NCBI GenBank assembly: GCA_964546115.1
Contig: CAZJIM010000002.1
Coordinates: 1,742 to 65,741 of the forward strand
Origin: an uncultured Gemmatimonadaceae bacterium
GTDB taxonomy: Bacteria; Gemmatimonadota; Gemmatimonadetes; Longimicrobiales; Gaopeijiaceae
DNA: 64,000 bases
Reading direction: 5' to 3'
Of the stretch, positions 9,200 to 28,256 are shown piece by piece. How positions within the stretch are numbered: position 1 is the stretch's first letter; each line of letters opens with the position of its first letter. The translations under genes were made by a program, and so were the position numbers. Under the pieces are notes generated by a model. It was not told the origin of the DNA. It ran no database searches and saw only the letters and a program-made list of their open reading frames with translations.

Positions 9200-9227
9200 T
9201 GCCAGGATGAGGAGGAGTTCGAGGTGT

Positions 9228-10487: not shown

Positions 10488-10492
10488 GCAAA

Positions 10493-11308: not shown

Positions 11309-11309
11309 A

Positions 11310-12380: not shown

Positions 12381-13492
12381 GCCTTTTCCAGAAACGGCGG
12401 CAGGACACGAGCACCGTCAAAACACTCCCGCGCGATCTCGGTTGCGCGGTTCGCATGGAGGGCGTATTCGCTTTCCACGCGTTTGAGGCCATCGAGCGCC
12501 TCGTCGACGGTCGAGAAACCGATGAGACCGGTGCCCGAAGGGAGGTGGGCGCTCCACCCGGTGTCCTGCACGAGCGCCGGTCGCCCAGCCGCCAGGTAGC
12601 ACGCGGTCCGGTCGCTGAACCAACCCGAATGCCTAGCCACGTAGGCGTGCTTGGCGACACCGAACTCCGCCTTCGATGCACGGATGAAGTCGCGGTAATC
12701 CCAAAGCGATCTAGAAACGCTCATCGCGTCGACCGGTGACCAGCCGTGTTCCCTGAGCAGTTCCATCGGACCGTTCACCGCGATCTCGAATCGCGAGGGC
12801 GTACGGGACGGTAGCTCGATGAACCGGATGAACTCCCGATCCTTGTTGCCGTCGACGTCCGTGAAGCTTTCGTTCTTCCAGGTCATCACGGTGGTGAAGC
12901 TCTCACCGGCCGGCAGTTCGTCGGTGTGCCAGAGCTCAGTGACGACGGGCTGCCAAGTCGGGTGCCACACGAGGCCGCTCGTCGGCACGTCGCAGGCTGG
13001 CGTACCAATGTTCGCCCCGAAGGTGAACAGATGGTCGAACCCCCGAAAGAACTCCACGTACCACTCTTCACCTTTTGCGATCGCGAGCTGCGTGAACACC
13101 GGGTCCGAGTCGACGAACACTCGGCGCGGGATGGCCGCGTACTCGTCACGCCAAGACCAGGAGCCTCCGGAGAGGTTCACGAAGAGGTCGGCCTCCGCGC
13201 AGTAGGTGCAAACGGCGTCCTTCGAAAGACCGTGATACGATCCGTCGTAGTTGACGAAGCTCCAACGGTCGCCGAGACCGAACGGCTCTAGCGCCTCATG
13301 GATGTAGCGCGTGCCGTATCCGGGGTCGGTCGCGATCTCGTCGCGCTCCGGGTCGTAGTTACACTCGCCGGTGTCCTCGATGTAGAGGACCTCGTGCCCG
13401 AGCCCCCGGAGGCCGAGCAGATACATTAGTGAACACCAAGTGACGCCACCGAAGGGATAGCGAGCGACGATACCGGCCAGCACGATCTTCAC
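12371..13492 (-). CDS. GT-B-like (CgeB/DUF3880-like) putative glycosyltransferase
   Basis: 373 aa. Rossmann-like N-terminus MKIVLAGIVARYPFGGVTW...GHEVLYIED. The C-terminus (YLAAGRPALVQDTGWS...GLIGFSTVDEAL) resembles the donor-binding half of GT1/GT4 enzymes. Assignment is by resemblance only. Confidence 0.55.
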   Translation of the reverse strand: MKIVLAGIVARYPFGGVTWCSLMYLLGLRGLGHEVLYIEDTGECNYDPERDEIATDPGYGTRYIHEALEPFGLGDRWSFVNYDGSYHGLSKDAVCTYCAEADLFVNLSGGSWSWRDEYAAIPRRVFVDSDPVFTQLAIAKGEEWYVEFFRGFDHLFTFGANIGTPACDVPTSGLVWHPTWQPVVTELWHTDELPAGESFTTVMTWKNESFTDVDGNKDREFIRFIELPSRTPSRFEIAVNGPMELLREHGWSPVDAMSVSRSLWDYRDFIRASKAEFGVAKHAYVARHSGWFSDRTACYLAAGRPALVQDTGWSAHLPSGTGLIGFSTVDEALDGLKRVESEYALHANRATEIARECFDGARVLPPFLEKACG

Positions 13493-13505
13493 GAGGTGGC
13501 CCGCT

Positions 13506-15329
13506 TCATGACGTAGCCCGCAGAAGCTCGTCCACCGTGCGCGGTTCGTCGAGCGATTTACCGACGGACAGGCGCTCGCACATCCGCCGATAGAGCCCGC
13601 ACGTCTTGATCAACTCGTCATGGGGTCCCTGGGCAACCAATCGCCCATCGTTCAGCACGAGGATGCGCGAGGCGTCGCGGACCGTGGATAGACGGTGGGC
13701 GATGACGAGCATGGTGTGGCTGGCGCGAAGCCGCCGTAGGGTATCGAAGATCGCCCCTTCAGAGATCGCGTCGACCGCTGAGGTGGGTTCGTCGAGAATC
13801 AAGATCGGAGCCACCTTCAGGAGCGCACGGGCGATACCGATTCGTTGGCGCTCGCCGCCTGAGAGCGTCGCGCCCCCCTCATGGACAGGGGTCTCATAGC
13901 CCTGAGGCAGACGGGTCACGAAATTGTGAAGGTTGGCGCCTCTCGCCGCCGCTTCGACGTCGGCGTCTGAGGCGTCGAGCCGCCCGTAGCGGATATTTTC
14001 GGCGATCGTGCCGGTAAACAGTATCGGCTGCTGCGGGACCAACGCGATCTGCTCACGAAGCGATTTCAAGGAGTAGCGGACCACGTTGATGTCGTCGATG
14101 AATACGCGGCCGGAGGCGGGCTCGAAGAATCTTGGGACCAAGCTGGCGATCGTGGTCTTACCGGCGCCGGTAAGACCGACCAGCGCGACCATCTCTCCAG
14201 GTCGGGCCTCGAAGCTGATGGTGTCGAGTACGTCCCGTTCGTCACCGTACTTGAAGCTCACCTCATCGAAGCGGATGTGTCCCTCGGTGCCCGATGCGTC
14301 GATCCCATCGGGATCGTCGAGGATCTCAGGGGTGAGGGAGAAGATCTCGCGGACACGGCGAGCACTCGTGACGGCTTGCTGCAGCGATCCGGTTGAGTGT
14401 GCAATCGCCGAGATCGGGTCATAGACCGCCGCCAGATAGGCGACGACCACGAGCAGGCTCCCGAGCGTCAGCGTGCCGTTCAGTACGTGGAGTCCGCCCA
14501 CGATCAGGACCAGAGCCGTGCCGGAAATCGTAATCGTCGTCACTGCGACGGAGAAGAGCGATTCCTGCCACGTCAGCGTGAGCCGGGCACGCATGGTGTC
14601 GTCCCCAGAGCTCGAGAAGCGCGCCAGCTCGTGGCGCTCCCGCGTAAAGCTCTTCACGGCCGCAACCGAGGACAGAATCTCGAAGGCGCGCTCGATCAAC
14701 GTCGACTCCAGCGCCTTCACCCGCTCGGCGCGATCGAGCATAGTGCGCGAGTAGAAGCGGAGGCACACATAGAGAAACGGCGCCACCACCAGCGAAAGCA
14801 GGGCGAGCGTCGGGTCCACGTAGACCAGGACCACGAACATGACCCCCAGATTGAGCGTAGCGAGAGTCAACGGAAACACACCACCGATAATCAAGTCGTC
14901 CACACAGTGCGCGTCGGCATCGAGCCGATAGACCGAATCGGCTGTCGGGGTCAGGACGTGGTGGCCCAGCGGAAGCGCCTGGAGGTGCTCCAGGAGCTTG
15001 GCCCGGAGCGTGTAGACGACGCTCTGGGCCACCTTCACCTGCATCTGGGTGTGGACCATACGGACCACCTCGTTGGCGATCTGGACTAGGAGACCGGCCA
15101 GGACGACGACAATGAGGAACGCCAGAGCACTGCCAATGATTGCCGCGGGAGTGATGGCTACAAGCGACGCCGGAAGCGGAAGACCGCCCAGCACATAGTC
15201 CACGATCACTTTGAGCGGCCAGGGGGCCAGCACCGCCAGGCCGATCTCTAGGATCGACAGCGCAAGGATCGCGGCGGCCTTTCCTCGATAGGGTTGGAGG
15301 AATCCGAGCGTCCAGGCAATCACGGTCAC
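13506..15329 (-). CDS. ABC exporter, fused permease/ATPase (MsbA/type I exporter-like)
   Basis: 607 aa. Six N-terminal TM helices. Walker A GLTGAGKTT, signature LSGGERQRIGIARAL and Walker B ILILDE. Confidence 0.9.
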   Translation of the reverse strand: MTVIAWTLGFLQPYRGKAAAILALSILEIGLAVLAPWPLKVIVDYVLGGLPLPASLVAITPAAIIGSALAFLIVVVLAGLLVQIANEVVRMVHTQMQVKVAQSVVYTLRAKLLEHLQALPLGHHVLTPTADSVYRLDADAHCVDDLIIGGVFPLTLATLNLGVMFVVLVYVDPTLALLSLVVAPFLYVCLRFYSRTMLDRAERVKALESTLIERAFEILSSVAAVKSFTRERHELARFSSSGDDTMRARLTLTWQESLFSVAVTTITISGTALVLIVGGLHVLNGTLTLGSLLVVVAYLAAVYDPISAIAHSTGSLQQAVTSARRVREIFSLTPEILDDPDGIDASGTEGHIRFDEVSFKYGDERDVLDTISFEARPGEMVALVGLTGAGKTTIASLVPRFFEPASGRVFIDDINVVRYSLKSLREQIALVPQQPILFTGTIAENIRYGRLDASDADVEAAARGANLHNFVTRLPQGYETPVHEGGATLSGGERQRIGIARALLKVAPILILDEPTSAVDAISEGAIFDTLRRLRASHTMLVIAHRLSTVRDASRILVLNDGRLVAQGPHDELIKTCGLYRRMCERLSVGKSLDEPRTVDELLRATS

Positions 15330-15339
15330 GGGAACACCT

Positions 15340-18114
15340 TCAACCTATGAAATCGGACACCGTCGTCTCGGCGGATCGCCGGGGCGTGGGTTCGACCCTG
15401 GGTTCTACGGCGAATTCGACCATGGTTTCAGCCGTAGATTCAGTCGTCGGCTCGACCATGGGTTCGACCGTGGTCGAGACCGGCAATTTTAGCAGCCCGG
15501 CAGCCGTGCTGACCCGAGCGACCGCCCGGTCGAGCACGGCCGTGGCGCGCATCACTTGCCAAGCGGCGCGGACGCCGATCGCCGCTATGGAAACCGCCGC
15601 GACCAAGACGGTCACCGACAGATCGTAGATGAAAATAGACGCGCTCATGCCGCCGGCTATTAATACCGCCAACGTCACACCCTGAAGGGTACCGACGAAG
15701 CTGGGACGCAGCCGTGCTCGCATCCGGAAGAGACAAGCTCCGTGTTCGTGCTCCTCAACGAGCGTCCGCACGTGCAACCAACCCCAGCGGCCGATCGCCA
15801 AGCTGAAATCCCGGTCGGGACGCCATCCCGCGTCGACGTCGACGATCTGAGTGGGCCGCGAGGCGCGCAGGACCCCGACGAGTTCAGTCAACAGGGTCGT
15901 GTGCGATGCCCACGACTCGCCCCAGAACGAGCGCTCCGTACCGGTGCGGGTCACGAGGCGCGCGGACGCGACGACGTCGCGCAAGGTCGGCATCGGCGAC
16001 TTCCAAGGATGCCGTGTCACGTGCTTCAGTGCCACCGCCGGGGGCCGCGACAGACCGCGGAAGCGCCCTCTGAATCGGGCCAGCGGCTGGAGCACGTGGA
16101 GCCACGCGATGAGGCCTCGATACAAAAAGCTACTCTGTCGCATGGACCAGCGTCCGATAGCGGGCAGACCGTCGAGGTTGGCACGCCAACCGCATCGGGC
16201 ACACTGCGCAAAGGTGACGGTCCCGCCGAGGATCCCGGCGATCAGAGGAAGCCACGCGGCGTCCATGCCTGCCAGCGGCCCAAAGACCCCGATGAGGAGC
16301 AAAACGAACGAGGCGGCCATCCACCCCGGCGAGTGGGGCAGGTAGTGCCACCGATGCGATTGCGTGCTGTAGATCGACGGGAATGCCGCTGTACCCCAAA
16401 CCCCGGTGTTCACTCGCCGCTCGGCCACCGGGCCCTGGAAGGGAAGCGGGCCATAGATACGCCCACGCCACACCATTTGCCCGCCGAGAAACTTCTCGGG
16501 ATGATGCGCGTCGAGCCAAGCCTCCCCCTCGCCATATCCGACCTGCTGACGCCAATACGCTCGCACGCTTGCTCGGCGATGGTGCCAGACCAGCGCCGAC
16601 GGTGCGAAGCCGATGTCCAGATTTTTGGCCTGCAGTCGCCAGCAGATGTCGACGTCGTCGCCGGCACGGACATAGACCGGATTGAAGCCATCGGCGGCCA
16701 AGAGCACGTCCCTTCTGAACGCCATGTTGCAGCCCGGTACGTGCTCAGCGATCCGGTCGTCGAGCATGACGTGGATTGGTTCTCCGGGGGCACGCGCTAC
16801 ACACTGTGACACCCATGGGTCGTCTGCCGGCACGACGTTCGGACCTCCGACGCCGGCGACGTCGGAGGTGAGCAACGGCTGCACCAAGTAGGTCAGCCAA
16901 TCGGGGTCGACACGGACATCGGCGTCGGTATACGCGATGATCGCGCCGGTCGCGGCGGCGAGTCCGACGTTCCGCGCCGCACTCAGGCCGCCGTTCGGCA
17001 CCTCAATGACACGAACGCCGGAATACCCTCGAGCGAGGTCCCCCGTCGCATCGCGCGACCCATCGTCGACGACGATGACCTCCACGTCGGGGTAGGTCAG
17101 TTCATCGAGCGACGTCAGGCAGTCGGCAAGGGTGTCCGCGGCGTTATACGCGCAGACCACCACTGAGACTTTCGGCCACGTAGCGCGCTCGCTGGACGGG
17201 AACGGAGCGCTGGCGAAGACCTCTTGCACTGCAGAGAGCGCCGGTTTGCGGTGTCGCGCCTCATCGACCAGGCCAAAGTTCCAGTCGTCGACCGTCTGGC
17301 CGCCGCGCCACCACTCGTCGGTCCAGGCGTACGCCACCGCACCACAGGCACCTTCGGCAAAAGCAGTCCGGAGATGTGTGGCCGTGATGCACGCTTGCCC
17401 CTTTAGTCCCTCTCGCAAGCTGTCCCCGCCGGCTTCCGCAAGGAGCAGCGGTCGGATACCCGCGAGATGCTGCAAGCGTGCGAGATAGCCTCGGAGCTCG
17501 GTCTCGCGGTGGAGATAGACGTTGTAGGCGAAGACGTCGAACGCATCGAGTTCGAGGTGCTCAGTCGGCGGGAAATTTACATACGTCAACAGGCTAGCGG
17601 GTGCCACGGCCTTCACGTCTTGGTAGAACTCGCGCAGGAACCGCTCGATCCTTCTGTGGCCGTGCCAACGGACGATCCCCGCGGGGATTTCGTTTCCGAG
17701 AGCAAAGAGGAGCGCCGCGGGGTGCTCCGCAAGCCGTCGCACAGTCGTGACGGCGTCAGATTTAATGCGTCGAGTGAGCCTTCTGTCGTCGAGGAATGGG
17801 ATGTGTTGCGGCCACGCCAGTCCGACCATCACGCTGAGACCGTGCCGAAGGGCTTCGTCGAGCAGGGCCAAAGACGGCGGTGTGTAGGTGCGCACCGTGT
17901 TGATGCCGGCGGCCGCCATCAGTGTAAAATCCTGTGCGATGCGCTCCTTCGACGGGAATTGTGCTCCCTCGCTGTCTGGAGCGAAGGTGCCGTAGGCAAC
18001 TCCTTTGATCCAAATACGACGCCCATCGACTTCTAGGAATTTGCCATCCATGCGGACACGGCCAGCGGGCCCGATTAGGGTGCGAGAGCCGCTCACACGG
18101 GTGGTGTCGTCCAC
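15340..18114 (-). CDS. Tri-partite fusion of a clan GH-A glycosidase-like domain, a GT2 glycosyltransferase and a polytopic membrane domain
   Basis: 924 aa. The N-terminal ~300 aa is a (beta/alpha)8-like domain (IWIKGVAYG, ALGNEIP, LLAEAGGDS). The GT2 core is VSVVVCAYNAADTL...VIVVDDGSRD...TDADVRVDPDW...WRQQVGYGEG. The C-terminal third is hydrophobic and ends in a VEP-rich low-complexity tail. Confidence 0.8.
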   Translation of the reverse strand: MDDTTRVSGSRTLIGPAGRVRMDGKFLEVDGRRIWIKGVAYGTFAPDSEGAQFPSKERIAQDFTLMAAAGINTVRTYTPPSLALLDEALRHGLSVMVGLAWPQHIPFLDDRRLTRRIKSDAVTTVRRLAEHPAALLFALGNEIPAGIVRWHGHRRIERFLREFYQDVKAVAPASLLTYVNFPPTEHLELDAFDVFAYNVYLHRETELRGYLARLQHLAGIRPLLLAEAGGDSLREGLKGQACITATHLRTAFAEGACGAVAYAWTDEWWRGGQTVDDWNFGLVDEARHRKPALSAVQEVFASAPFPSSERATWPKVSVVVCAYNAADTLADCLTSLDELTYPDVEVIVVDDGSRDATGDLARGYSGVRVIEVPNGGLSAARNVGLAAATGAIIAYTDADVRVDPDWLTYLVQPLLTSDVAGVGGPNVVPADDPWVSQCVARAPGEPIHVMLDDRIAEHVPGCNMAFRRDVLLAADGFNPVYVRAGDDVDICWRLQAKNLDIGFAPSALVWHHRRASVRAYWRQQVGYGEGEAWLDAHHPEKFLGGQMVWRGRIYGPLPFQGPVAERRVNTGVWGTAAFPSIYSTQSHRWHYLPHSPGWMAASFVLLLIGVFGPLAGMDAAWLPLIAGILGGTVTFAQCARCGWRANLDGLPAIGRWSMRQSSFLYRGLIAWLHVLQPLARFRGRFRGLSRPPAVALKHVTRHPWKSPMPTLRDVVASARLVTRTGTERSFWGESWASHTTLLTELVGVLRASRPTQIVDVDAGWRPDRDFSLAIGRWGWLHVRTLVEEHEHGACLFRMRARLRPSFVGTLQGVTLAVLIAGGMSASIFIYDLSVTVLVAAVSIAAIGVRAAWQVMRATAVLDRAVARVSTAAGLLKLPVSTTVEPMVEPTTESTAETMVEFAVEPRVEPTPRRSAETTVSDFIG

Positions 18115-18165
18115 CGGGATGGCCGGCCGGCTAATCCGCCGAAACGGGCTGCGAAATCATGTCCA

Positions 18166-19332
18166 TCATAACCAGTGACCCGAGCGTTTCGCCTTGGTCT
18201 GGACGTAGCGCAGATTGTGGCGGTTGATTCCACCGTAGAGGGGCATGCGTTCCGTGACTTCGATGCCGCTCTCCTCCACCGCCATCACCTTGTTGGGGTT
18301 GTTGGTGAGGAGTTCGACCCGCTTGATGTCGAGGTGGTTCAGGATCGCCACCCCCGCATCGTAACGCCGCTCGTCCGCACCGAAGCCGAGCACGCCGTCA
18401 GCGTCGACCGTGTCCAGCCCATCGGCTTGGAGGTTGTAAGCGCGAATCTTGTTACCCAGTCCGATCCCACGGCCCTCTTGGGCTAGATATACCAACACGC
18501 CTCCGCCCCGGTTCTTGAAGTGCTCTAGGCTCCCGCGGAGCTGCTCCCCACAGTCACAGCGCAAGCTGCCGAAGAGGTCTCCCGTGAGGCACGCCGAGTG
18601 GAGGCGTACCGGCACCGGATCGGGCCATCCTGCGCGAGGTCCGACCAGTACCGCCACGTGCTCCAGGAGGCCCCCGCCTTCTCGGAAGAATACGAAACGG
18701 GAGTGCTCGGCGCCCGCCAAGGGAACCGGCGCCTCGGCCACGGTGGTGATCTCGATTCCGGACCCGGCCGCCGCGTGCTCTGCGTCCTCGTTCGAGACGT
18801 CGAGAACCGTCCCGTCCTCGATCCAGCGCACTAGTAGCGGCGAACCGCGATCCACCTCCACGCTCACCACAGCGGGAAGGAGACGGGCGAATCGCGTGAG
18901 CGCCAACCCTGCCGATTCAGTGGCGCTGGCCGGACGCGTGTTGAAGCGGAGAGAAGAGCCGGACTGGGCGGGTCTTCGTGCCGTCGCCAGTCCCAGAATC
19001 GTCTCCGGAGTTTCGCCGACGTCGAGTCCGATGCTGAGGTTCGCCTCACCCTCGTGTTCGGCGATCCTCATCGCTCGACCGCGATGGCGGGTCACGACCA
19101 GACGAAGGGGTGCACCGAGGGAGCGGAGCCGTTCCAGCCCGTCCACGCCCAGACATTCGACCGCAGCGACCAGGGCGCACGCACCTCGAGCCCCATTGGT
19201 CACGCAGAGAACTCGTCCCTGCCTGAGCTCGAAGAGTCCTCGTTCCGCTTTGTGCGCCATTCGGTCAGGTAGTATCGTTGGGGCCGCGTGTGCCCCGATC
19301 CGGGCGTCGTGGGCTGGCTGGCCGCTCTGCAA
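18166..19332 (-). CDS. GTP cyclohydrolase II paralog with a degenerate DHBP-synthase(RibB)-like N-terminal domain
   Basis: The C-terminal ~190 aa is HSACLTGDLFGSLRCDCGEQL...EGRGIGLGNKIRAYNLQ...LLTNNPNKV, the canonical RibA core with its zinc Cys triad. The N-terminal ~190 aa aligns to RibB (ELRQGRVLCV...ALVAAVE...LRLVVTRHR) but lacks the acidic catalytic motif. An alternative start is ATG 19260. Confidence 0.85.
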   Translation of the reverse strand: MQSGQPAHDARIGAHAAPTILPDRMAHKAERGLFELRQGRVLCVTNGARGACALVAAVECLGVDGLERLRSLGAPLRLVVTRHRGRAMRIAEHEGEANLSIGLDVGETPETILGLATARRPAQSGSSLRFNTRPASATESAGLALTRFARLLPAVVSVEVDRGSPLLVRWIEDGTVLDVSNEDAEHAAAGSGIEITTVAEAPVPLAGAEHSRFVFFREGGGLLEHVAVLVGPRAGWPDPVPVRLHSACLTGDLFGSLRCDCGEQLRGSLEHFKNRGGGVLVYLAQEGRGIGLGNKIRAYNLQADGLDTVDADGVLGFGADERRYDAGVAILNHLDIKRVELLTNNPNKVMAVEESGIEVTERMPLYGGINRHNLRYVQTKAKRSGHWL

Positions 19333-19394
19333 TTCGTCCCGGAAACCGGTTCCGGGGCGATCGGGCGAAAGATGCGCCTGTAGGACTCCGGCTG

Positions 19395-21047
19395 ATGAGG
19401 GTACTCATTAAGATGATCAGGCTCGTGTCCGGGTGGGTGCTTGTCAATGGGCTGCTCTTGACGCCATCGTGGCTCTCGGGCGTGGTGGCGGACGCACCGA
19501 CGTCGGCCTGGCTTTCCCTGGAGGCGGCCCTGATCGTGGGTGCGATGGCGCTCCTGCCACGGCGGCCTTGGAGCCGCGGGCTGGCCTGGGTCTTGGCCAC
19601 GGGAGTCATTCTGTTCGTCGCCATCGCGCTGACGGATGTCGTCTTCCGGGTGAGCCTGAGCCGCTCGCTCAACCTCTCCTTGGACCTCTATCTGCTGAGC
19701 GCCATCTACCGGCTGGCGGTGGGGAATTTGGGGTTCTTGTCGACACTTTTTGGGTTCGGGGCAATCACCGTTTCCCTCGCCCTGTCGGCGTTCGCGATGG
19801 CATGGCTTCTGACGCCGACCGCCTCGGACGGCGGGAAGTCCCTCTCCCGGCCCGTACCGCGGGCCGCAGGGGGAATCATAGTGGGCTCGCTCGCGCTCGG
19901 CCTCATTGGTCTGGCCGCGCCCGCCGTTGGACACCTGATGGCCGCACCCGCCGTTTGGCTCGCCCTCGAGCAGGCGGAGCAATTTGGGGCGACTCGCGAG
20001 GAACAGAAGGCGTTCGCGGCCGAGCTGGAGACGCGCTCGGATGGATTCGCGGACTTGCCGGGACTGTTCTCGAGGCTGGAGGGGCGCAACGTCGTCTTGA
20101 CGTACATCGAGTCCTACGGGATGGCGGCGCTCGAGGACCCTGAGTTCGCGGTGACCATTCGGCCGCGCCTCGACACGATCGCAACACGAATCGAGAGTGC
20201 GGGCCTCCACTTCGCGACCGGCGAGTTTACCTCCCCTACCGTGGGCGGGCAGTCGTGGTACGCGCACGGGACCATGCTCAGCGGACTCTGGCTCGAAAAT
20301 CAGCTTCGCTACGACCTCCTGCTCGCGAGCGAGCGGAAGACGCTGGTCGACGACTTCCGTCGCGCCGGCTACCGCACCGCAACCGTGATGCCCGCCATCA
20401 CGACGAGCTGGCCGGAGGGGCTCCGACTCGGCTACGACGACGTGTATTCGAGGCCTTCCATTCCCTACGCCGGCCCGCCCTTCTACTGGGTCACCGTCCC
20501 GGATCAGTTCACGTGGTCGTTCCTCGGGGACCTCATCAAGGAGGCGACAACCCCGCTCTTTTTGGAAGCGGCGATGGTGAGCAGCCATGCGCCCTGGACC
20601 CCCGTCCTGCCCCTCGTCGATTGGGACTCCGTGGGGGACGGAGCGATTTTCGGACCCTACCGAGAGGATGGGTATCCGCCCGAGAAACTCTGGTGGGATG
20701 TCCAGGCCCTGCGCCAGGGTTACGCTCGCACTCTCGACTACTCGCTGCTGGCGATGGCCGAGTTTGCCGAGTGGTTCCTGAATGAGCGGACGCTCCTGGT
20801 CGTGGTTGGGGACCACCAGGCGGCTCCCTGGGTGACGGGGGCGAGCGACGCGGATGTTCCGGTGCACGTGATCGCCCACGACCCCGCCCTTCTCAAGCCC
20901 TTCTTCGAGTGGGGGTTCCTCCCCGGCGCCTTCCCCAACCCGGAGGGCACGCCTCCGCGAATGGACGAGTTCCGCGAGTGGTTCCTGCGGGCCTTTAGCG
21001 GCGGCACCGTCGACTCCACCACTCTTTTGACGAAGGAGGGAAGGTGA
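19395..21047 (+). CDS. Membrane-anchored sulfatase/LtaS-like (alkaline-phosphatase superfamily) transferase
   Basis: Start chosen at ATG 19395 (MRVLIKMIRLVSGW...). There are about 5 N-terminal TM helices, followed by a catalytic domain with NVVLTYIESYG, FTSPTVGGQSW and VVVGDHQAAPW. The overlapping 653-aa minus ORF is an Arg/Pro-rich shadow. Confidence 0.7.
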   Translation: MRVLIKMIRLVSGWVLVNGLLLTPSWLSGVVADAPTSAWLSLEAALIVGAMALLPRRPWSRGLAWVLATGVILFVAIALTDVVFRVSLSRSLNLSLDLYLLSAIYRLAVGNLGFLSTLFGFGAITVSLALSAFAMAWLLTPTASDGGKSLSRPVPRAAGGIIVGSLALGLIGLAAPAVGHLMAAPAVWLALEQAEQFGATREEQKAFAAELETRSDGFADLPGLFSRLEGRNVVLTYIESYGMAALEDPEFAVTIRPRLDTIATRIESAGLHFATGEFTSPTVGGQSWYAHGTMLSGLWLENQLRYDLLLASERKTLVDDFRRAGYRTATVMPAITTSWPEGLRLGYDDVYSRPSIPYAGPPFYWVTVPDQFTWSFLGDLIKEATTPLFLEAAMVSSHAPWTPVLPLVDWDSVGDGAIFGPYREDGYPPEKLWWDVQALRQGYARTLDYSLLAMAEFAEWFLNERTLLVVVGDHQAAPWVTGASDADVPVHVIAHDPALLKPFFEWGFLPGAFPNPEGTPPRMDEFREWFLRAFSGGTVDSTTLLTKEGR

Positions 21048-21682
21048 CAAAGGGCTTCGGCACCGGCGCCCGGCTCTTCCATTGGTTGGTCGTGCTACTC
21101 TTGCTGGTACAGATCCCCGCGGGAATCGCGATGATCGCACCCGCCCTCGAGCAGGAGTCAATCGACCGGCTCTTTGTCTTGCACAAAGGGCTCGGCGTCG
21201 TACTCCTCGTGGTCGTGGCGGCCCGCGTACTGTGGCGGCTGACCCACCCGGCGCCGCCGATGTCGGAGACCTTCCCCGAGTTGGAGCGACGCATGGCGAC
21301 CATGGCGCACTGGGTCATCTACGTGGTCCTGATCGTGGTTGCGGGGAGCGGATACGTGCACGTGGTCGGGGATGGCTTCCCCATCGAGATGATGGACGCG
21401 CTCAGGCTACCGACGCTGTTACCTCTGATGCCCGGGGTCGCCTCGTGGGCGTCCCTCGTGCACCGATTCTCGACGTTCTTGCTGATCATCCTGGTGTCAT
21501 TTCACGTGGCAGAGGTCCTGCGGCACCATCTAGTGCTGCGCGACGAGACGCTGGGCCGGATGTGGCCGCCGCTTGGCGGGCCAGAGCCCCCTCCCGACTC
21601 CGAAACGAAGCCGGAGAGCGGGACCAAGACCGAGGGAGTGGCTAACCCCGAAGGAGGGGCCGGCGGTGTGGGGCCGAGTTGA
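21044..21682 (+). CDS. Cytochrome b561 family protein
   Basis: 212 aa with 4 TM segments. Has the conserved His pattern (ARLFHWLVVLL, LHKGLG, MAHWVIY, HRFSTF). The GTG start overlaps the upstream TGA (GTGA). Confidence 0.75.
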   Translation: MTKGFGTGARLFHWLVVLLLLVQIPAGIAMIAPALEQESIDRLFVLHKGLGVVLLVVVAARVLWRLTHPAPPMSETFPELERRMATMAHWVIYVVLIVVAGSGYVHVVGDGFPIEMMDALRLPTLLPLMPGVASWASLVHRFSTFLLIILVSFHVAEVLRHHLVLRDETLGRMWPPLGGPEPPPDSETKPESGTKTEGVANPEGGAGGVGPS

Positions 21683-22430
21683 GTGCTGGCTCGGCCTGGT
21701 TCGCTCGCTGATCATCTACTGGCGGCCGGGCCGGCAGCGCGGGCTGCGGGAGCTGTACCGCCCGTTCGTCGGGGCGGGAGACCTGGTTTTCGACGTGGGG
21801 GCGCACCTGGGAGACCGCACCGCCGCGTTCCGAAAATTGGGCGCGCGGGTGGTGGCCTTGGAGCCCCAGCCAGCCGTGTGCCGCTGGCTCGTGCAGATCG
21901 TCGGGCGCAGCCGTGACGTTTCAGTTCGGCCGGAGGCGGTGGGGCGCGCGGTCGGTACCGCCCGCCTGGCCCTGAGCCACCGCACGCCGACCATGTCCTC
22001 CCTGGCCGAGGACTGGCGAAGCACCCTGCCCGCACAGAACCCCGGCTTCCGCCGCGTGCGCTGGGACGACTCGTTGGAGGTGCCGGTGACGACCCTGGAC
22101 GCGCTGATCGAGGACCATGGCCTCCCGCGCTTCTGTAAAATCGACGTGGAAGGGTACGAAGCCGAGGTGCTGGCGGGCCTGAGTCACCGCATCCCCGCGC
22201 TCTCCGTGGAATTCTTGGGAGGGGCTCTGGACGTCGCCGAGGCGTGCGTGCGGAGGCTCGAGGTGCTAAGTGGGTACGAGTTCAACGCGATCGAGGGAGA
22301 GGAGAGGAGATTCATGTCGAAGCAGTGGCTTACGGCTAATGAGATGGTCGCCTGGCTGAGGCGTGACGGGGGGAGTGTTTCTTCGGGAGACGTCTACGCC
22401 CGGCTGACCGAGTGCTCGAACCATGGCTGA
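21666..22430 (+). CDS. FkbM-family SAM-dependent methyltransferase
   Basis: FDVGAHLGDRTAAF...VVALEPQP...FCKIDVEGYEAEVL are typical FkbM motifs. Start placed at GTG 21666, a 17-nt overlap with the b561 gene. The track ORF from 21573 would overlap by 110 nt. Confidence 0.7.
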   Translation: MWGRVECWLGLVRSLIIYWRPGRQRGLRELYRPFVGAGDLVFDVGAHLGDRTAAFRKLGARVVALEPQPAVCRWLVQIVGRSRDVSVRPEAVGRAVGTARLALSHRTPTMSSLAEDWRSTLPAQNPGFRRVRWDDSLEVPVTTLDALIEDHGLPRFCKIDVEGYEAEVLAGLSHRIPALSVEFLGGALDVAEACVRRLEVLSGYEFNAIEGEERRFMSKQWLTANEMVAWLRRDGGSVSSGDVYARLTECSNHG

Positions 22431-23238
22431 CGGGGCGATCCGTTGGTGGCAAACCCTGACGACGGTGGAGGCGGATGCGATCGAGGCAAGCGATCCGGTG
22501 GTCGTTCTGCCCCTCGCCGCAGTCGAACCGCACGGATCTCACCTGCCCCTCTCCACCGGCCTCGAGATCGGGCTCGGCCTGCTCTCGGAAGCGTTCGGGC
22601 GGCTGCCGGATGGCTTTCCGGCCTGGGCTCTGCCGCCCCAAGCGATCGGCTGCAGCCGAGAACACTCGCGCTTTGCGGGAACGCTTTCTCTGGAGCCGGA
22701 GCAGCTCTCCTCCCTGATCGAGGCGGCGGGCGAGGCTCTCGCACGAATCGGCGTGCGGCGCCTCGTGCTGAGCAACAGCCACGGCGGGAACCGGCACGCG
22801 CTGGAGATCGCCGGTCTACGGCTTCGCGACGAGTTGGGTATGCTGGTCGTGCACGCGAGCTGGTTCCGTTTTCCCCAGCTGAAAGACGTGGACCTCCCGG
22901 ATGGGGAGTGGCGCCACGGCATCCATGGCGGGGCGGTGGAGACGGCCATGATGATGCATCTCCGGCCGGATCTGGTGAGCGCGCCCGAAGCGGCCCAGAC
23001 CCGCTCCTTCGGTGAGGAATTTGAGAAAACGCTACGGTTGGTGGCTCCGGAGGGTTCGACCTCGTTCTCCTGGCTGGCCGGCGATCTAAATGTCGATGGA
23101 GTGGTCGGGGACGCGACCTTGGCCAACGCCGATCTTGGGGCACGGTTGGTGTCGCACTACGGAGCGTTCCTGGCCGACGTAATCGAGGACGCGCGGGCGT
23201 TCCCTCTGGACCGGCTGGAGACCCACGCCCGTGAGTAG
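22423..23238 (+). CDS. Creatininase-family amidohydrolase
   Basis: 271 aa. Family motifs are VVVLPLAAVEPHGSHLPLSTG, SNSHGGN and HGGAVETAMMMHL. The start overlaps the FkbM stop by 8 nt. Confidence 0.85.
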   Translation: MADGAIRWWQTLTTVEADAIEASDPVVVLPLAAVEPHGSHLPLSTGLEIGLGLLSEAFGRLPDGFPAWALPPQAIGCSREHSRFAGTLSLEPEQLSSLIEAAGEALARIGVRRLVLSNSHGGNRHALEIAGLRLRDELGMLVVHASWFRFPQLKDVDLPDGEWRHGIHGGAVETAMMMHLRPDLVSAPEAAQTRSFGEEFEKTLRLVAPEGSTSFSWLAGDLNVDGVVGDATLANADLGARLVSHYGAFLADVIEDARAFPLDRLETHARE

Positions 23239-23261
23239 CTCCGCGAAGGCGGTGGGTCGGA

Positions 23262-24152
23262 TTGTCTGAGATCGCAGCCGCGCTGGACGAGGTTGCGGCC
23301 TGGACACTGGTACGCGCCGCCGTGGCGCGTGATCTCCCCGAGCCCGGGCCTCGTCGTGTAGTGCATGGCACGCGCTCGGAGCTCTGGCTTGAGCTGAGCG
23401 AGTCCGGGCGCTGGGAGACGTCGGCTCCGCCCACGCCGGCGGCTCGAGATCTGCTCGACCTCTATCTGCCGCTCACCCGTGGACCCGACTTGGTCATCGG
23501 GCAGCTCGGCCAGAGCCTGGACGGCCGCATCGCAACGGTGAGCGGGAAGTCCCACTACATCACCGGACCAGAGGACATCCGCCGCCTCCACCGACTTCGC
23601 GCTCTGGTCGACGCCGTGATCGTGGGGGTCGTCACCGTGGCGCTGGACGATCCGGAGCTCACGGTGCGGAAGGTGAAGGGCGAAAATCCGGTCCGGGTGG
23701 TGCTCGATCCGGACGGCCGCCTCGGGCAGGACCGTCGGATCTTCTCGGACGGATTGGCCCCGACGATCGTGGTGCGAGGCACCGGGGTGGATGATCTCCA
23801 AGCCACAGGGGATGGCCCCGATGATGCCAAAGCCACAGGGGATGGCCTCCCGGAAGTCCTCACCCTTCCCGCCTCCGGCGCCGAGGGCTTCGAGCCGAAG
23901 GGTGTTCTGGAAGCGCTCCGTGCCCGCGGGCTGCGACGGGTGCTGGTGGAGGGGGGAGGGGTCACGGTGTCGAGGTTCCTCAAGGCCGGCATCCTCGACC
24001 GACTCCACCTGACCGTCGCACCTATGTTGATGGGCTCGGGCCGTCCGGGGATCACCCTGCCGCCGATCGAGACCCTGGACCAGTCGCTCCGGGCTCGGTG
24101 CCGTCACGTACCCCTAGGAGACGACCTCCTCTTCGATCTCGACCTGAGCTGA
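23262..24152 (+). CDS. RibD C-terminal-domain (DHFR-like) reductase, no deaminase domain
   Basis: 296 aa. Has GQLGQSLDGRIAT...ITGPEDIRRLHRLRALVDAVIVGVVTV..DDP.LTVR...RVLVEGGGVTVSRFL...LHLTVAPMLMGSG. It contains an in-frame 30-bp tandem duplication. Confidence 0.85.
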   Translation: MSEIAAALDEVAAWTLVRAAVARDLPEPGPRRVVHGTRSELWLELSESGRWETSAPPTPAARDLLDLYLPLTRGPDLVIGQLGQSLDGRIATVSGKSHYITGPEDIRRLHRLRALVDAVIVGVVTVALDDPELTVRKVKGENPVRVVLDPDGRLGQDRRIFSDGLAPTIVVRGTGVDDLQATGDGPDDAKATGDGLPEVLTLPASGAEGFEPKGVLEALRARGLRRVLVEGGGVTVSRFLKAGILDRLHLTVAPMLMGSGRPGITLPPIETLDQSLRARCRHVPLGDDLLFDLDLS

Positions 24153-24185
24153 GCAGGACGACGCCCGGAACGGAGGAACCGGGGA

Positions 24186-25016
24186 TCAGGGACTGTCTAG
24201 GCCCCGGGGGAGGGCCAACAGGTCCACGTGTCCCACATCGAGCCCAGGCGTCAAGGCGGTCGTTGCGCGACGGCGGTCTGCCCAACTCTGGATGAGCGCA
24301 GCGTCGTCGGGACGCTGCTCGGAGGCGGCCGCCCCCCACCCGTCGATCAACGCGCGAGCCAGCGAAGTGTCGGCGGCGCCCAAGCGCCAGGGGCTCGGCC
24401 GGAGCCGGGTGTCGTATCCGGCCGCGCGGAATGCGCGCTCCGCCGCGGGGCCGCCCGCCGGTCCGAGCGCAGGTCCCATGCCCTTGTCCCGGAGCTGATG
24501 GCTCCGCACTGCCTCGGCGACGAGCGCGTCGTCGGGGTCGGGGTCATCCCAGGTCATGGTGCCATCCCAGGTGAGGGCAAGCAGCGCCCCGCTCCCGGCT
24601 GCTAGGCACGCTGCTACGAGCCGCTCGAGCCACTCGTGGGTCACCAGGTCCAGCAGCGCGGAGGCTGTCACGAGGTCCGCTCCGAGGACGAGCTCCAGCC
24701 CTTCCTGGTCCAGCTCGCCGACGACGCACTCCGCCCCACCCCCCCCGGCCATTCCGTGGACTGCGACGACCGTGTGGGTCGCCCGTTCAAGCAGAGCGGC
24801 GTCCCTGTCCACCAGCGTCCATGTCTGCTCGCCCGGGAGCCGGGGCACGAGGTAGCGGAGGTTCGAACCGGTGCCGCTACCCAGGTCGAGCACGCGCCGG
24901 CTCGGCCGGGACTCCCACCACTCGGCCAGGGGGACCACGAGATCGGCGGCGCGGGAGCGGTGATCCACCGGCTCGCGCAAGGCCAGCCAGTCCGGGGTGA
25001 AGGTTTCCTCACCCAC
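24186..25016 (-). CDS. Class I SAM-dependent methyltransferase
   Basis: Start placed at GTG 25016 ([16 protein letters not shown]...), overlapping the upstream GT stop by 8 nt. SAM motif is VLDLGSGTGSNLRYL. The 332-aa track ORF extends into the GT gene. Confidence 0.75.
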   Translation of the reverse strand: MGEETFTPDWLALREPVDHRSRAADLVVPLAEWWESRPSRRVLDLGSGTGSNLRYLVPRLPGEQTWTLVDRDAALLERATHTVVAVHGMAGGGGAECVVGELDQEGLELVLGADLVTASALLDLVTHEWLERLVAACLAAGSGALLALTWDGTMTWDDPDPDDALVAEAVRSHQLRDKGMGPALGPAGGPAAERAFRAAGYDTRLRPSPWRLGAADTSLARALIDGWGAAASEQRPDDAALIQSWADRRRATTALTPGLDVGHVDLLALPRGLDSP

Positions 25017-26106
25017 CCGGAGAGATCTCCCGAACGGCAAGCTCGAAGGCCAGGGTCGCGTCGCCCCAGGTAGAGAGAGACCGGCCGTGGCGGAGCGATC
25101 CCTCCGCAAGCTCGGTCCGACGCGCGGCCCCCCCCGGGTCCGAAAGCAGCTCCTCCAGCGCAACCGCCAGAGCCGCCTCGTCACCGGGGGCCACGAGCAT
25201 ACCGGCCTCGGGGGGTACGGTGTCCGGAACTGCTCCTCCGCGCGTGCTCAAGACCGGGAGTCCGCGGGCGAGAGCCTCGGACAGCACCATGCCGTAGCCT
25301 TCGTAGTGAGTCGCAAGCACGAAGATCGAAGCCGAGTGGTAGAGCCCGTCGAGCTCCAGGGCCCCGAGCTCGCCGGGGAAGTCGATTCGGTCCTCCAGCC
25401 CCAGTGCTCGCGTCAGCTCCAGCACCGAGCCGGCGAATTCCGGCGCCCGCGTCAGGGTCCCTGCGCACAGGCAGCTCCAGGGGAGAGCAGTGACGCGGGC
25501 GAGGGCGCGAACCAGCACGTCCTGCCCCTTTCGGGGGATCACCGAGCCCACACACAGAAGGCGGGGAGCCTCGCCGGGCCCGGGGCCTACCGCGGCTCGC
25601 GCCGCGTCTGTCCCGGGCGGTACGATGCGGATGCGCGAGGCGGGGACGCCGTACTCCGCGAGCCGGCTCGCGCTGAACGCGCTCGTCACAACCACGCCGG
25701 AGCACTGTGCCAGAGACTCGCGCTCCAACCCGGTGAGGCGAGCGTGCTCGGCGGTGTCCAATCCCGTCTCGTCGGCAAGCGGGTGGTGAATGAGAGCCGT
25801 CAGCCGTAAACGCTCTCGGTGCACCCGGAGAGGGTCGGGAAGCGGGCTCATAGCGAGGCCGTCCAGGACAACCCGGGCACCTTCGGGGATCCCCTCTAGG
25901 GTGCGAGCGAGGCTAGACTCCGCGCACGTGTCGCCCGCGGAGAATCTGCCCTCGAGCACATGGGTGATCACGTTCCAGCCCAGCGCTGTCAGGCCTTCGG
26001 CGATCCGTGCGTCGTAGAGGTAGCCGCCGGTCCGCTGGCCGAGCGGCCCCGGAACGATCAGGTGGAGATCCCCCGCGCTCAAACCGACCCTTCGAAGGAT
26101 GCCCAT
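25009..26106 (-). CDS. GT-B fold glycosyltransferase, family 4
   Basis: 365 aa. Has [18 protein letters not shown] and the C-terminal [29 protein letters not shown] (E-x7-E region). Its 5' end overlaps the PTPS-like gene by 28 nt. Confidence 0.85.
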
Positions 26107-26477
26107 GCCACATGCGACTCGTGAAGCGTCATGTTTAGTCGCTGGATGCCTCGAGCCTCGTCCCCGAGGCGGCCATCATGAATTGCCTCCACGAGCCGGT
26201 CGAAGATCGTGCGCGCCAGGAACTCCGTTGTCGTGTTCTGCCCCGTGAACGCGGCCTCCTCGTCCAGGTTTCGGAAATCAAGCTCCCCGAGGATCTCTTT
26301 AAGCGTCGCGCTGGCGAGTCCGATGTCGACGACCAGGCCGTCGGCGTCGAGTTCCGGGCGGCGAAAGGTGGCGTCCACGATGTAGGTGGCACCGTGGAGA
26401 TTCTGCGCTGGACCAAAGGTCTCACCGCTGAAGCTGTGGGCGATCATGAAATGGTCGCGGACGTTCAGGCTATACAA
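26079..26477 (-). CDS. PTPS/QueD-like T-fold protein lacking canonical zinc and catalytic residues
   Basis: 132 aa. T-fold pattern FMIAHSF...[13 protein letters not shown]...DFRNLDEE...[12 protein letters not shown] replaces HGH, there is no catalytic Cys, and LDFRNL replaces LDHxxL. Confidence 0.85.
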
Positions 26478-26485
26478 GGCCCCTC

Positions 26486-27475
26486 CTAATAGCAGATTCG
26501 GTGGCAGAGTTCGTCACCTGGGTCTTTGCTCAGGTGTGCGAGCACCTCGGGGAGGTCCTTGAAGTCACTTTCCCCTGTGATGAGAGCATCAAGGTTGGGG
26601 TCTCGAAGGAGATCCAGTGCCAACTCCATCCTACGAGACCAGGTCCACCGGGGTGATCGCATTGACGGCAGACGTCCCACCTGACTGCACTTCACGGAGA
26701 GACGGCGCGAATGGAAGCCCTCTCCGAGAGGTAGGCATACAGACTCGTTTCCGTACCAACTCACTTCGACGATTGTGGCCTCTCTCCCTGCGGACTCCAG
26801 CGCTCCTCGGAGCCCGCTCGGGCTTCCGCTTGCATGGAACACCAGGTCCGCATCTGCCTTTGGCGGGGAGTCCGTGCTGAAGGGCACGCCCAGCGCTTCG
26901 GCCTGGGACTCTCTGGACGCGTTCAGGTCGATTGCTGTTACCTGAGTGCCGGGAATCTGACGGCATAGCCAGGAGATGAGCAGTCCTATCACTCCCGCGC
27001 CGATGACGACGATCCGGTCTCCGGTTGAAGGAGCTCCGTCCCAGACGGCGTTCACCGCCGTTTCCATATTTGCCGCCAGGACGGCTCGGGCAGGTGGCAG
27101 ATCATGAGGAAGAGGGGTTACTGCTGACTCCTGCACCAGATATAGGTCCTGATGGGGATAGAGGCAGAACACCGTCTGGCCCTCCAGGTTAGCGCCCGAC
27201 GAGTCGGCTTGCTCCACCACCTCTCCCACGCTCGAATACCCGTACTTGATAGGGCCGGGGAGGGTGCCTTCCTGGAACGGCGCTCGCATCGTCACATACT
27301 GTGACGGGGGCACCTCCCCCTTGAACACCAGGGACTCAGTTCCACGGCTGATTCCGGAGAAGAGCGTTCGCACTAGCACCTCGTGCCCTTGCCTCGAAGG
27401 CAGATCTCTCCTCAAGATTTCTCCTTGGCCCGGCCCCTGAATCCAGAACTGCCGGGAACTCTTCGTTTTTGACAT
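26486..27475 (-). CDS. MDR-superfamily dehydrogenase, BchC-like subgroup
   Basis: 329 aa. GroES-like N-domain with [12 protein letters not shown] in place of the GxCxxD zinc-Cys motif. The Rossmann motif is [10 protein letters not shown]. Confidence 0.85.
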
Positions 27476-27509
27476 GTCCCTTCAGCTCTCTGGATGCGGG
27501 TCGGTCCCC

Positions 27510-28256
27510 ATGTCTTCAACCAACCACGGTTCCATGGTTCCGTTCACAGCAGGCGGTGCTCTTCACCGATCGGGAGGAGACCTTGGTGTCGCAGTTCTTC
27601 CGCTCCTGGCGGTCACCGCTGCAACTTGGCGGCTCTTTGGCCTCCCTGCCAGCTACCTGATTCAGGTAGTGGCGGTCTACGTAGCAATGTCCGCGTTGGT
27701 GGTGTGGCGTTCACCGGCGCCCTCTACGACTCGGGGCCTGGGTGTCGCGAACCGGATCACCCTGGGTCGGGCGACGCTCGTTCTTCCCGTAGCAGCACTT
27801 GTGTTCCATCCTCAGATCGTCGTGGGTGCGGCGTACTGGTGGATCATTCTCTGTTCCGCTCTGGCGATGCTCCTGGACAGTCTTGATGGGCGCGTGGCTC
27901 GGCGGACTGGGACGACCTCTGCCTTCGGAGCCGGGTTCGACATGGAGCTGGACGCGTTCTTGATCCTAGTACTCTCGGTCCTCGTCTGGCAGAGTGGGAA
28001 AGTGGGTCCATGGGTCCTTCTGATCGGTGCCCTTCGCTACCTTTTTATCGCCGCTGGGTGGATGTGGCCGAGGCTCAGAGGGAAGTTGCCCGAGAGTCAA
28101 CGGAGAAAGGCAGTGTGCGTGGTTCAGGGAATTGTGCTGTTGGCATGTCTGGCGCCGATGATTCCTTCGGTGATGGCTTCGGCGGTGGCCGCGGGAGGCT
28201 TGGCGCTACTCATGTACTCATTCGCGGTCGACGTTGCCTGGCTGGTGACCCACTAG
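27510..28256 (+). CDS. CDP-alcohol phosphatidyltransferase family protein
   Basis: Signature D-G-x2-A-R-x8-G-x3-D-x3-D is present as LDSLDGRVARRTGTTSAFGAGFDMELDA, with about 6 TM helices. The start is uncertain among ATG 27474 (overlaps the divergent start), 27510 and 27534. Confidence 0.8.
   Translation: MSSTNHGSMVPFTAGGALHRSGGDLGVAVLPLLAVTAATWRLFGLPASYLIQVVAVYVAMSALVVWRSPAPSTTRGLGVANRITLGRATLVLPVAALVFHPQIVVGAAYWWIILCSALAMLLDSLDGRVARRTGTTSAFGAGFDMELDAFLILVLSVLVWQSGKVGPWVLLIGALRYLFIAAGWMWPRLRGKLPESQRRKAVCVVQGIVLLACLAPMIPSVMASAVAAGGLALLMYSFAVDVAWLVTH

Follow-up and report, generated by a model that had tools for sequence, protein, structure and literature searches.

Within COG0720, an FGPAQ signature defines the PTPS-IV subfamily of T-fold proteins, whose linkage to GTP cyclohydrolase II (GCH II, PF00925) has already been reported (PMC5445326). 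Subfamily and link are both described in published work (PMC5041015, PMC5445326), and a role for PTPS-IV in F420 synthesis has been stated as an unpublished result (PMC5041015). A structure of one member, SCO6650 of Streptomyces coelicolor, is available as PDB 3D7J ("Uncharacterized protein SCO6650"), and the searchable literature holds no product assignment for the PTPS-IV/SCO6650 neighbourhood. Here we analyse 64,000 nucleotides of contig CAZJIM010000002.1 from an uncultured Gemmatimonadaceae bacterium (the window), in which eleven genes at 18166-28256, one of them a PTPS-IV gene, form a cluster. This locus is the Gemmatimonadota (Longimicrobiales-like) version of a widespread orphan PTPS-IV/SCO6650 cluster. 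We suggest, at a probability of about 0.4, that its genes tailor a GTP-derived 2-amino-4-oxopyrimidine or pterin-like head group, link it to a lipid through a phosphodiester, and have it moved outside the cytoplasm.

The PTPS-IV protein of the window is the SCO6650 orthologue and the marker of the cluster: it carries the same FGPAQ signature and matches 3D7J over residues 1-130 (E = 1.8e-52). A sequence-only reading of this DNA had named an S. coelicolor counterpart that starts at SCO6650 and was right to do so. It was also right that no product has been assigned; the neighbourhood had been noticed before, having been published as PTPS-IV with PF00925 (PMC5041015, PMC5445326). The window itself is thus a further member of an already noticed neighbourhood, and it is the system that is without a characterised counterpart. 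A Streptomyces locus (L057) shares the gene set, with GCH II, CDP-alcohol phosphatidyltransferase (CDP-OH transferase), MDR dehydrogenase, PTPS-IV, GT4 glycosyltransferase, methyltransferase, LPG_synthase_TM, RibD_C and creatininase all present. Relative to such SCO6650-type clusters, the window adds a cytochrome b561, an FkbM methyltransferase and an extension with GT2, ABC exporter and PIG-L genes, has no flippase-like gene, and keeps Tyr105 in GCH II, a residue that some actinomycete copies replace.

Gene content and conservation

All eleven genes listed by the sequence-only reading were found by Pfam and NCBIfam at the coordinates it had given, and start-codon inspection bore out the overlaps of 4-28 nt that it had described. 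Where the longest open reading frame (ORF) differs from the likely gene, both are given.

18166..19260, minus strand: GTP cyclohydrolase II with a predicted degenerate RibB-fold N-terminal domain (PF00925, 7.8e-53; longest ORF to 19332, likely start ATG 19260)
19395..21047, plus strand: predicted LtaS/EptA(MCR-1)-like membrane protein, "sulfatase-like" (PF00884, 1e-05; 5 N-terminal transmembrane (TM) helices; longest ORF from 19278)
21044..21682, plus strand: cytochrome b561, YceJ/CybB type (PF01292, 4.4e-27)
21666..22430, plus strand: FkbM-family methyltransferase (PF05050, 5.6e-15; TIGR01444, 4e-24; longest ORF from 21573)
22423..23238, plus strand: creatininase-family amidohydrolase (PF02633, 2.1e-55)
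23262..24152, plus strand: stand-alone RibD_C pyrimidine reductase (PF01872, 4.3e-40; TIGR01508, 2.7e-32, below cutoff)
24186..25016, minus strand: class-I S-adenosylmethionine methyltransferase (Methyltransf_25/23/12, weak, 6e-06; longest ORF to 25184)
25009..26106, minus strand: GT4 glycosyltransferase (PF13692, 6.8e-27; PF00534, 1.1e-25)
26079..26477, minus strand: PTPS-IV T-fold protein (PTPS Pfam, 5.4e-25; PDB 3D7J as above)
26486..27475, minus strand: BchC-like MDR dehydrogenase/reductase (weak MDR in Pfam; best NCBIfam TIGR01202 (BchC), 3.4e-14, far under cutoff)
27510..28256, plus strand: CDP-OH transferase (CDP-OH_P_transf), polytopic membrane protein (PF01066, 1.1e-17; longest ORF from 27474)

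On the likeliest choice of start codons, the LtaS-like and b561 genes overlap by 4 nt and are translationally coupled, b561 and FkbM overlap by 17 nt (FkbM start GTG 21666, preceded by AAGGAGG), FkbM and creatininase by 8 nt, GT4 and the class-I methyltransferase by 8 nt (methyltransferase start GTG 25016), and PTPS and GT4 by 28 nt. NCBIfam holds no curated family specific to any of the cluster proteins.

In a scan of genomes with each species represented once, at least 593 loci related to PTPS-IV were found, and relatives of the protein exceed 8000, with 63-86% identity between phyla. To count neighbours, the window proteins were compared by tblastn with the 80 best loci, and the 58 loci with 10 kb on both sides were scored. 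These counts come from tblastn because a gene caller based on third-position GC content (GC3) picked antisense ORFs in some high-GC loci (its families f11, f15 and f17 are artefacts). GT4 and the BchC-like MDR were found at 58/58 loci and the class-I methyltransferase at 57/58, and these core genes form with PTPS-IV an invariant operon core, MDR-PTPS-IV-GT4-methyltransferase. Less constant are the CDP-OH transferase (49/58), GCH II (39/58), RibD_C (38/58, undercounted in actinomycetes even by tblastn), an LPG_synthase_TM membrane protein (31/58), the LtaS-like protein (30/58), creatininase (27/58), FkbM (17/58), YceI (13/58) and cytochrome b561 (5/58, confined to Gemmatimonadota, where five of the six loci carry it). 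Gene order is also kept: the CDP-OH transferase is divergent from the MDR-PTPS-GT4-methyltransferase operon, which may end in the flippase-like gene, and RibD_C, GCH II and creatininase follow. Carriers span six classes or phyla, namely Gemmatimonadota, Acidobacteriota (Vicinamibacterales), Actinomycetota (including Micromonospora, Streptomyces and Nocardiopsis) and alpha-, beta- and gamma-proteobacteria, with many halophiles and haloalkaliphiles included. The contig of the window is of marine metagenome origin, and the closest genome relative of the window in the PTPS-IV scan is a Longimicrobiales (Gemmatimonadota) metagenome-assembled genome.

A neighbourhood that recurs around PTPS-IV at every fully flanked locus, across six classes or phyla, is more than chance, and the gene-neighbourhood check supports a real cluster that is conserved between phyla. 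That unrelated operons merely lie side by side, with no common pathway, might be suspected from the window, in which the cluster forms four transcription units in mixed orientation. However, gene set and order are kept at all 58 loci, close relatives hold the same block in differing genomic contexts, and two cluster members occur elsewhere as a single fused gene. The conservation data refute chance adjacency, and we consider it vanishingly improbable.

Putative heterocycle enzymes and tailoring core

The window GCH II resembles E. coli RibA (2BZ0, 1.7e-45) and is identical to it at all 12 checked positions, including R49, C54, C65, C67, Y105 and R128; the region around Tyr105 reads NKIRAYNLQ, and the zinc cysteines and Arg128 are kept. 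As Tyr105 and every catalytic residue are retained, the enzyme should be canonical, releasing formate by itself and not stopping at the formamidopyrimidine (FAPy). Homology and residue conservation suggest that it would convert GTP to 2,5-diamino-6-ribosylamino-4(3H)-pyrimidinone 5'-phosphate. Tyr105 is replaced only in some actinomycete orthologues, by Leu at the Streptomyces locus L057 and by His or Gln in Actinomadura, Pseudonocardia and Nocardiopsis. Where such copies occur (L057 7200-7950, minus strand, and at L044, L054 and L075), the accompanying creatininase homologue is more divergent (~30% identity, HAGExETS motif), and the Micromonospora GCH II keeps Tyr and has no creatininase gene nearby. 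In SCO6655, a FAPy-forming GCH II, Met replaces Tyr105, and the window enzyme is not of that type.

The N-terminal ~170 residues of this GCH II have a predicted DHBP-synthase fold. By Foldseek, the model (pLDDT 73.9) matches RibBA (RibA2) of M. tuberculosis, 4I14, over 371 columns, and ~30 stand-alone RibB structures (E ~1e-06), while residues 1-195 gave no Pfam match, and no PF00926 even at E <= 1. RibB proteins carry an acidic RENEGD-type motif, at the place of which the window protein reads VTNGARGACALV. With the acidic motif gone, the domain is, on the model, a dead RibB remnant, in agreement with the earlier claim that no catalytically intact RibB is present.

The stand-alone RibD_C reductase most resembles archaeal enzymes. 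Its best PDB matches, 6P8C (1.5e-25) and 2AZN (3e-23), are archaeal 2,5-diamino-6-ribosylamino-pyrimidinone 5'-phosphate (DAROPP) reductases, with bacterial RibD at ~1e-15, and it scores 111.7 bits against TIGR01508 (cutoff 186). The Lys that precedes SLDGR in bacterial RibD (..KlgaSLDGR) is Gln in the window reductase and Asn in the archaeal enzymes. Pfam found no deaminase domain in the reductase ORF or in the cluster, and this, together with the archaeal-like reductase, suggests that the 2-amino group is retained in the pathway. Judging from its closest relatives and the missing deaminase, the reductase would take the GCH II product to a ribityl form without prior deamination, and so away from riboflavin. 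The sole deaminase-fold gene of the window, a TadA-like gene (MafB19/dCMP_cyt_deam_1) at 32578-33135 on the plus strand, is unlikely to supply the missing pyrimidine deaminase, as it has housekeeping genes (LexA, GltX) around it and does not accompany the cluster elsewhere.

The creatininase-family protein is harder to place. Archaea, Sinorhizobium and Brucella make riboflavin with the help of creatininase-family formamidases, ArfB and the bacterial BrbF (PMC5397151, PMC9478397), and the sequence-only reading had invoked this ArfB/FAPy logic. The gene is indeed present, but the logic does not fit here, since GCH II keeps Tyr105 and should deformylate unaided. The window creatininase also lacks a metal ligand: its motif is EPHGSHLPLSTGLE, against EQHGxHLPLSTD (EQHGxHLPLxTD) in 28/28 cluster-associated homologues, so that Gly replaces the metal-ligand Asp of HLPLxTD. 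Only the window copy is changed in this way, and it may be impaired, or the sequence may carry a sequencing error.

Neither the cluster nor the 64-kb window encodes a RibD deaminase, RibH, RibE, active RibB, FolE/B/K or QueC/E, and the window holds no F420 genes. Across ~80 related loci, RibH, RibE, active RibB, FbiC/CofGH and CofC/D/E are not recurrent, and neither are a RibD deaminase or the genes diagnostic of folate, BH4 and queuosine synthesis. We therefore reject a riboflavin operon, for want of a RibD deaminase, RibH or RibE, and a queuosine or folate pathway, for want of QueC/E or FolE/B/K; the view that this is no riboflavin, folate, tetrahydrobiopterin (BH4) or queuosine operon holds, and by the same evidence it is no F420 operon either. 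The product chemistry put forward by the sequence-only reading is putative, as is ours. The tox (toxoflavin) and other GCH II-initiated clusters offer a partial likeness, sharing a dedicated extra GCH II and methyltransferases. The tox clusters have a RibD-like protein with a deaminase domain, and ToxC and ToxD; PTPS, GT4, MDR and membrane transferases occur in the window cluster and are not known from tox.

The early archaeal and fungal steps to riboflavin and F420 (ArfA/ArfB/ArfC) comprise ring opening, deformylation and a reduction that precedes deamination. The stand-alone reductase, nearest to archaeal DAROPP reductases, and the creatininase-family hydrolase recall this route, and they raise the possibility that the cluster makes 5-amino-6-ribitylamino-uracil in archaeal style to feed riboflavin or F420/FO, with PTPS-IV filling a missing step and the glyco- and lipid genes being a separate neighbouring module. 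The reductase is nearest to ArfC-type enzymes, creatininase-family formamidases do serve riboflavin (PMC5397151, PMC9478397), and the stated PTPS-IV-F420 link (PMC5041015) points the same way. Even so, we find this quite unlikely. The window enters through a bacterial GCH II rather than GCH III and has no lumazine synthase, riboflavin synthase or FO synthase; the later riboflavin and F420 genes are neither recurrent in the related loci nor found in the window; and Rfam, run on the window and on four related loci, yielded tRNAs only, with no FMN riboswitch or other riboswitch. Moreover, the cluster genes always lie amid glycosyl-, methyl- and phosphatidyl-transferases, PTPS-IV is tied more tightly to GT4, MDR and the methyltransferase (57-58/58) than to GCH II or creatininase (39 and 27 of the 58), and the family is patchy where riboflavin synthesis is near-universal.

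PTPS-IV itself is not a catalytic PTPS/QueD protein. Membership in PTPS-I, -II or -III is rejected, as the Zn triad HGH and the CxxxHGH, CxxxxxHGH or ExxHGH motifs are replaced. Alignments to PTPS 2G64 and to the family show that the catalytic Cys is missing (Ala24 instead), as is the third Zn His (HGA for HGH, with A30 invariant). In 14 diverse members, G22, P23 and A24 of the FGPAQ signature are invariant, and so is Glu120, which corresponds in position to the pterin-anchoring Glu. These residues are consistent with a ligand of the 2-amino-4-oxopyrimidine or pterin-like kind.

The MDR protein has no catalytic-zinc Cys (GISRGTE motif), as in BchC, and a GAGVIG nucleotide-binding motif; BchC orthology is rejected, its score against TIGR01202 being 52.7 bits with a cutoff of 291. 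The GT4 protein, a generic member of its family, matches Tll1590 (5e-20, sucrose-phosphate-synthase-like), MshA (5e-14) and PimB' (3e-12) in PDB, and is more weakly related to BH4 glucosyltransferases (5ZE7, 9e-07; 9V0L, 2.3e-05). It was also considered as a pteridine glycosyltransferase (BGluT/PGT), and this was rejected, as its closest homology lies with Tll1590, MshA and PimB'.

These proteins together raise a rival that deserves more weight, namely a soluble compound of pterin type, glycosylated and methylated, for which biopterin glucoside, tepidopterin and cyanopterin offer a comparison; the membrane genes would then serve export or be unrelated. The invariant core of MDR, PTPS-IV, GT4 and methyltransferase mirrors the set of reductase, PTPS and pteridine glycosyltransferase that makes pterin glycosides, with the same logic of T-fold, dehydrogenase and GT-B enzymes. 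Homology between the GT4 protein and the BH4 glucosyltransferases can be detected, the GT-B/GT4-like group also includes the pteridine glycosyltransferases (PMC5683033), and PTPS-IV keeps the pterin-anchoring Glu. Pterin glycoside synthesis differs at its entry, however, which is GCH I, whereas the window starts with GCH II and a putative ribityl-forming reductase. The window PTPS-IV has neither Zn site nor catalytic Cys, its reductase is an MDR and not an SDR, and its GT4 lies nearer MshA, PimB' and the sucrose-phosphate-synthase-like enzyme. Membrane transferases are also added: the CDP-OH transferase is divergently paired with the core at 49 of the 58 loci and is sometimes fused to the LtaS-like protein within the cluster. 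We regard a soluble pterin glycoside as unlikely.

The membrane half and a proposed lipid-linked product

The "sulfatase" of the cluster has five N-terminal TM helices, and a sequence search against PDB gave no match. Its fold was thus assigned from an AlphaFold2 model (pLDDT 81.7) with Foldseek, for which the best matches are LtaP/LtaS, full-length MCR-1 (TMq 0.50), EptC and GacH. E239, T282, H398, D473 and H474 are invariant, a set that fits the metal ligands and nucleophile of enzymes by which phospholipids give up a phospho-alcohol head group to an acceptor outside the cytoplasm, and T282 is by its position the putative nucleophile. On this model the protein falls among the LtaS/EptA(MCR-1)-type enzymes of the alkaline-phosphatase superfamily, which transfer lipid phospho-head groups. 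With LtaS, OpgB and GacH, which take phosphoglycerol from phosphatidylglycerol, and EptA/MCR-1, which take phosphoethanolamine from phosphatidylethanolamine, it shares five TM helices, the alkaline-phosphatase fold and the Thr/Glu/Asp-His set, and also the partnership with a phospholipid-forming CDP-OH transferase and, at other loci, with LPG_synthase_TM, a likeness to systems with MprF-type flippase domains. It differs from them in sequence, with 13-16% identity only and no match to any solved structure in a sequence search. We know of no LtaS/EptA-type system that is clustered with enzymes for a GTP-derived heterocycle. A formylglycine-generating enzyme-like (FGE-sulfatase) gene at 5873-6871 on the plus strand, 12 kb upstream of the cluster, is probably unrelated to it, as the LtaS-like protein has Thr at the nucleophile position and not Cys/Ser-x-P-x-R.

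The CDP-OH transferase has an intact DxxDGxxARx8GxxxDxxxD motif (D144-D169 of a 260-aa ORF) and six hydrophobic segments. Choline and ethanolamine phosphotransferases are the closest proteins of solved structure, at 3e-05 only. Among 1.8 billion representative proteins searched for fusions, the 150 best representatives of the CDP-OH transferase were inspected, and the informative fusions were to the LtaS-like domain only, with none to a cytidylyltransferase, a fusion that would have spoken for a CDP-activated head group. Two natural fusions, P0363 (5e-46) and P0378 (5e-31 against the window LtaS-like protein in each case), join the two enzymes in one chain; the extra part of a third protein, P0387, is not LtaS-like and has no Pfam domain. 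P0363 (L087 3419-5773) lies inside an orthologous cluster, next to MDR-PTPS-GT4-methyltransferase and FkbM. Such fusion argues that the two membrane enzymes work on the same lipid. Together with the LtaS/EptA fold, it strengthens the phosphodiester or lipid linkage that the sequence-only reading had entertained.

Accessory membrane genes vary between lineages. An LPG_synthase_TM (MprF flippase-like) gene lies between the methyltransferase and RibD_C genes at 31 of the 58 loci (for example L085 14710-15684 and L086 14762-15685), and its frequency fits lipid flipping. An MprF-type flippase-like gene and YceI were looked for in the window and neither was found; the flippase-like gene is also missing from the related contig L084. 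A gene of the YceI family (polyisoprenoid-binding) adjoins the CDP-OH transferase at 13 of the 58 loci, in proteobacterial versions (e.g. L046 7134-7736, minus strand), and Gemmatimonadota carry b561 instead. In E. coli, yceI and yceJ (b561) are neighbouring genes. The b561 of the window and the YceI of proteobacteria hint at a redox or isoprenoid-quinone link, and at a redox-active head group.

Conserved clustering and the fusion are what suggest a link between heterocycle and lipid. Under the lipid-linked proposal, which we hold tentatively, the ribityl-bearing product of GCH II and the reductase would be tailored by the zinc-less PTPS-IV, the BchC-like MDR, the class-I methyltransferase and GT4, and in this lineage by FkbM also. 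The CDP-OH transferase would then join the product to a membrane lipid by a phosphodiester, most simply from CDP-diacylglycerol. The lipid would be flipped, in most lineages by the MprF-type LPG_synthase_TM protein; the window has only an adjacent ABC exporter for this. Finally, the LtaS/EptA-like enzyme would pass the phospho-head group to an extracytoplasmic acceptor, mirroring the transfer of phosphoglycerol from phosphatidylglycerol and of phosphoethanolamine from phosphatidylethanolamine.

Several points weigh against this proposal. The CDP-OH transferase may use an alcohol other than the GTP-derived compound, and given its distant likeness to choline and ethanolamine phosphotransferases, the head-group donor may instead be the CDP-activated partner. 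An ordinary glycophospholipid or polymer could also be what GT4, CDP-OH transferase, flippase-like and LtaS-like proteins produce. Genes for the LtaS-like and flippase-like proteins are not universal (30 and 31 of the 58 loci), and the window is without the latter. A creatininase homologue is hard to explain beside a GCH II with Tyr105, the more so as the window copy is short of one metal ligand. Lastly, the sole published hint on PTPS-IV is the unpublished F420 link (PMC5041015).

Flanking extension, mosaicism and significance

The GCH II unit runs on, on the same strand, into a lineage-specific extension at 9228..18114 (minus strand), with genes assigned by Pfam:

15340-18114, minus strand: GT2 synthase-like protein, 924 aa
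13506-15329, minus strand: ABC exporter
12371-13492, minus strand: protein of unknown type, 373 aa
11310-12380, minus strand: second GT4
10493-11596, minus strand: PIG-L deacetylase
9228-10487, minus strand: methyltransferase-like protein, 419 aa

In close relatives GCH II is likewise co-oriented with glycosyltransferases and an ABC exporter, with gaps of 16-51 nt, and L084-L086, which are related contigs, keep the order of the extension at 62-95% identity, within other flanking contexts. The 924-aa protein starts with a GH2-like TIM-barrel region, carries a GT2 domain and ends in TM helices, and its relatives are Longimicrobiales-like only; it could make the acceptor glycan.

The extension bears on a further rival, by which the product is a glycophospholipid or an envelope polymer of teichoic-acid-like or OPG-like kind, and the GTP enzymes supply no more than a small building block (such as a ribityl or ribitol-phosphate-type unit left once the ring is lost) or a dedicated cofactor, the head group being defined by something else. 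GT4, CDP-OH transferase, LtaS-like and flippase-like proteins, with the GT2, ABC exporter and PIG-L of the window, do resemble envelope glycoconjugate systems, and FkbM-type methyltransferases often methylate sugars. Yet the GT2/ABC/PIG-L extension is limited to one lineage, being absent beside the cluster in other phyla among the 58 loci, and a polyol unit drawn from GTP is without known precedent. The conservation of PTPS-IV across phyla and its kept Glu also point to a role with a heterocycle. We thus consider a polymer of this kind improbable.

Composition and identity vary along the locus. The MDR and CDP-OH transferase genes have a GC content of 0.60-0.61 and 54-63% identity to their closest relatives (L004, L084-L086), and the remaining cluster genes have 0.63-0.73 and mostly 73-95% (PIG-L 62% against L085/L086); the PTPS gene beside the boundary has 0.61 and 86-89%. 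This step in GC and identity between 26486-28256 and 9228-26477 suggests a recombination boundary near 26.48 kb and a mosaic cluster. A GC-rich block at ~9200-26500 (0.62-0.71) lies between flanks of 0.57-0.60, and in related contigs this block, which begins with the second GT4 and ends with the CDP-OH transferase, adjoins an SSF transporter, a response regulator or, in L086, an rve transposase. These contexts are consistent with horizontal movement of the block.

PTPS-IV has had a crystal structure and no function for more than a decade, despite 63-86% identity between phyla. The present analysis ties it to a fixed set of partners, and ties two membrane enzymes to each other by fusion, which yields a testable hypothesis of a guanine-derived head group in the lipid and envelope fraction. 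In its broadest form, which we think doubtful, the proposal is that of a new class of membrane lipid or envelope modification whose head group is a GTP-derived, ribityl-bearing heterocycle, possibly redox-active. In this form a dedicated CDP-OH transferase would install the head group and a dedicated LtaS/EptA-like enzyme would pass it onward to an extracytoplasmic acceptor; the system occurs in hundreds of species of at least four phyla. If true, the cluster would represent a new branch of GTP-derived cofactor chemistry and a new phospholipid head group or envelope decoration, would give a divergent LtaS/EptA family its function, and would show bacteria putting the archaeal-type "reduce before deaminate" pyrimidine intermediate to use.

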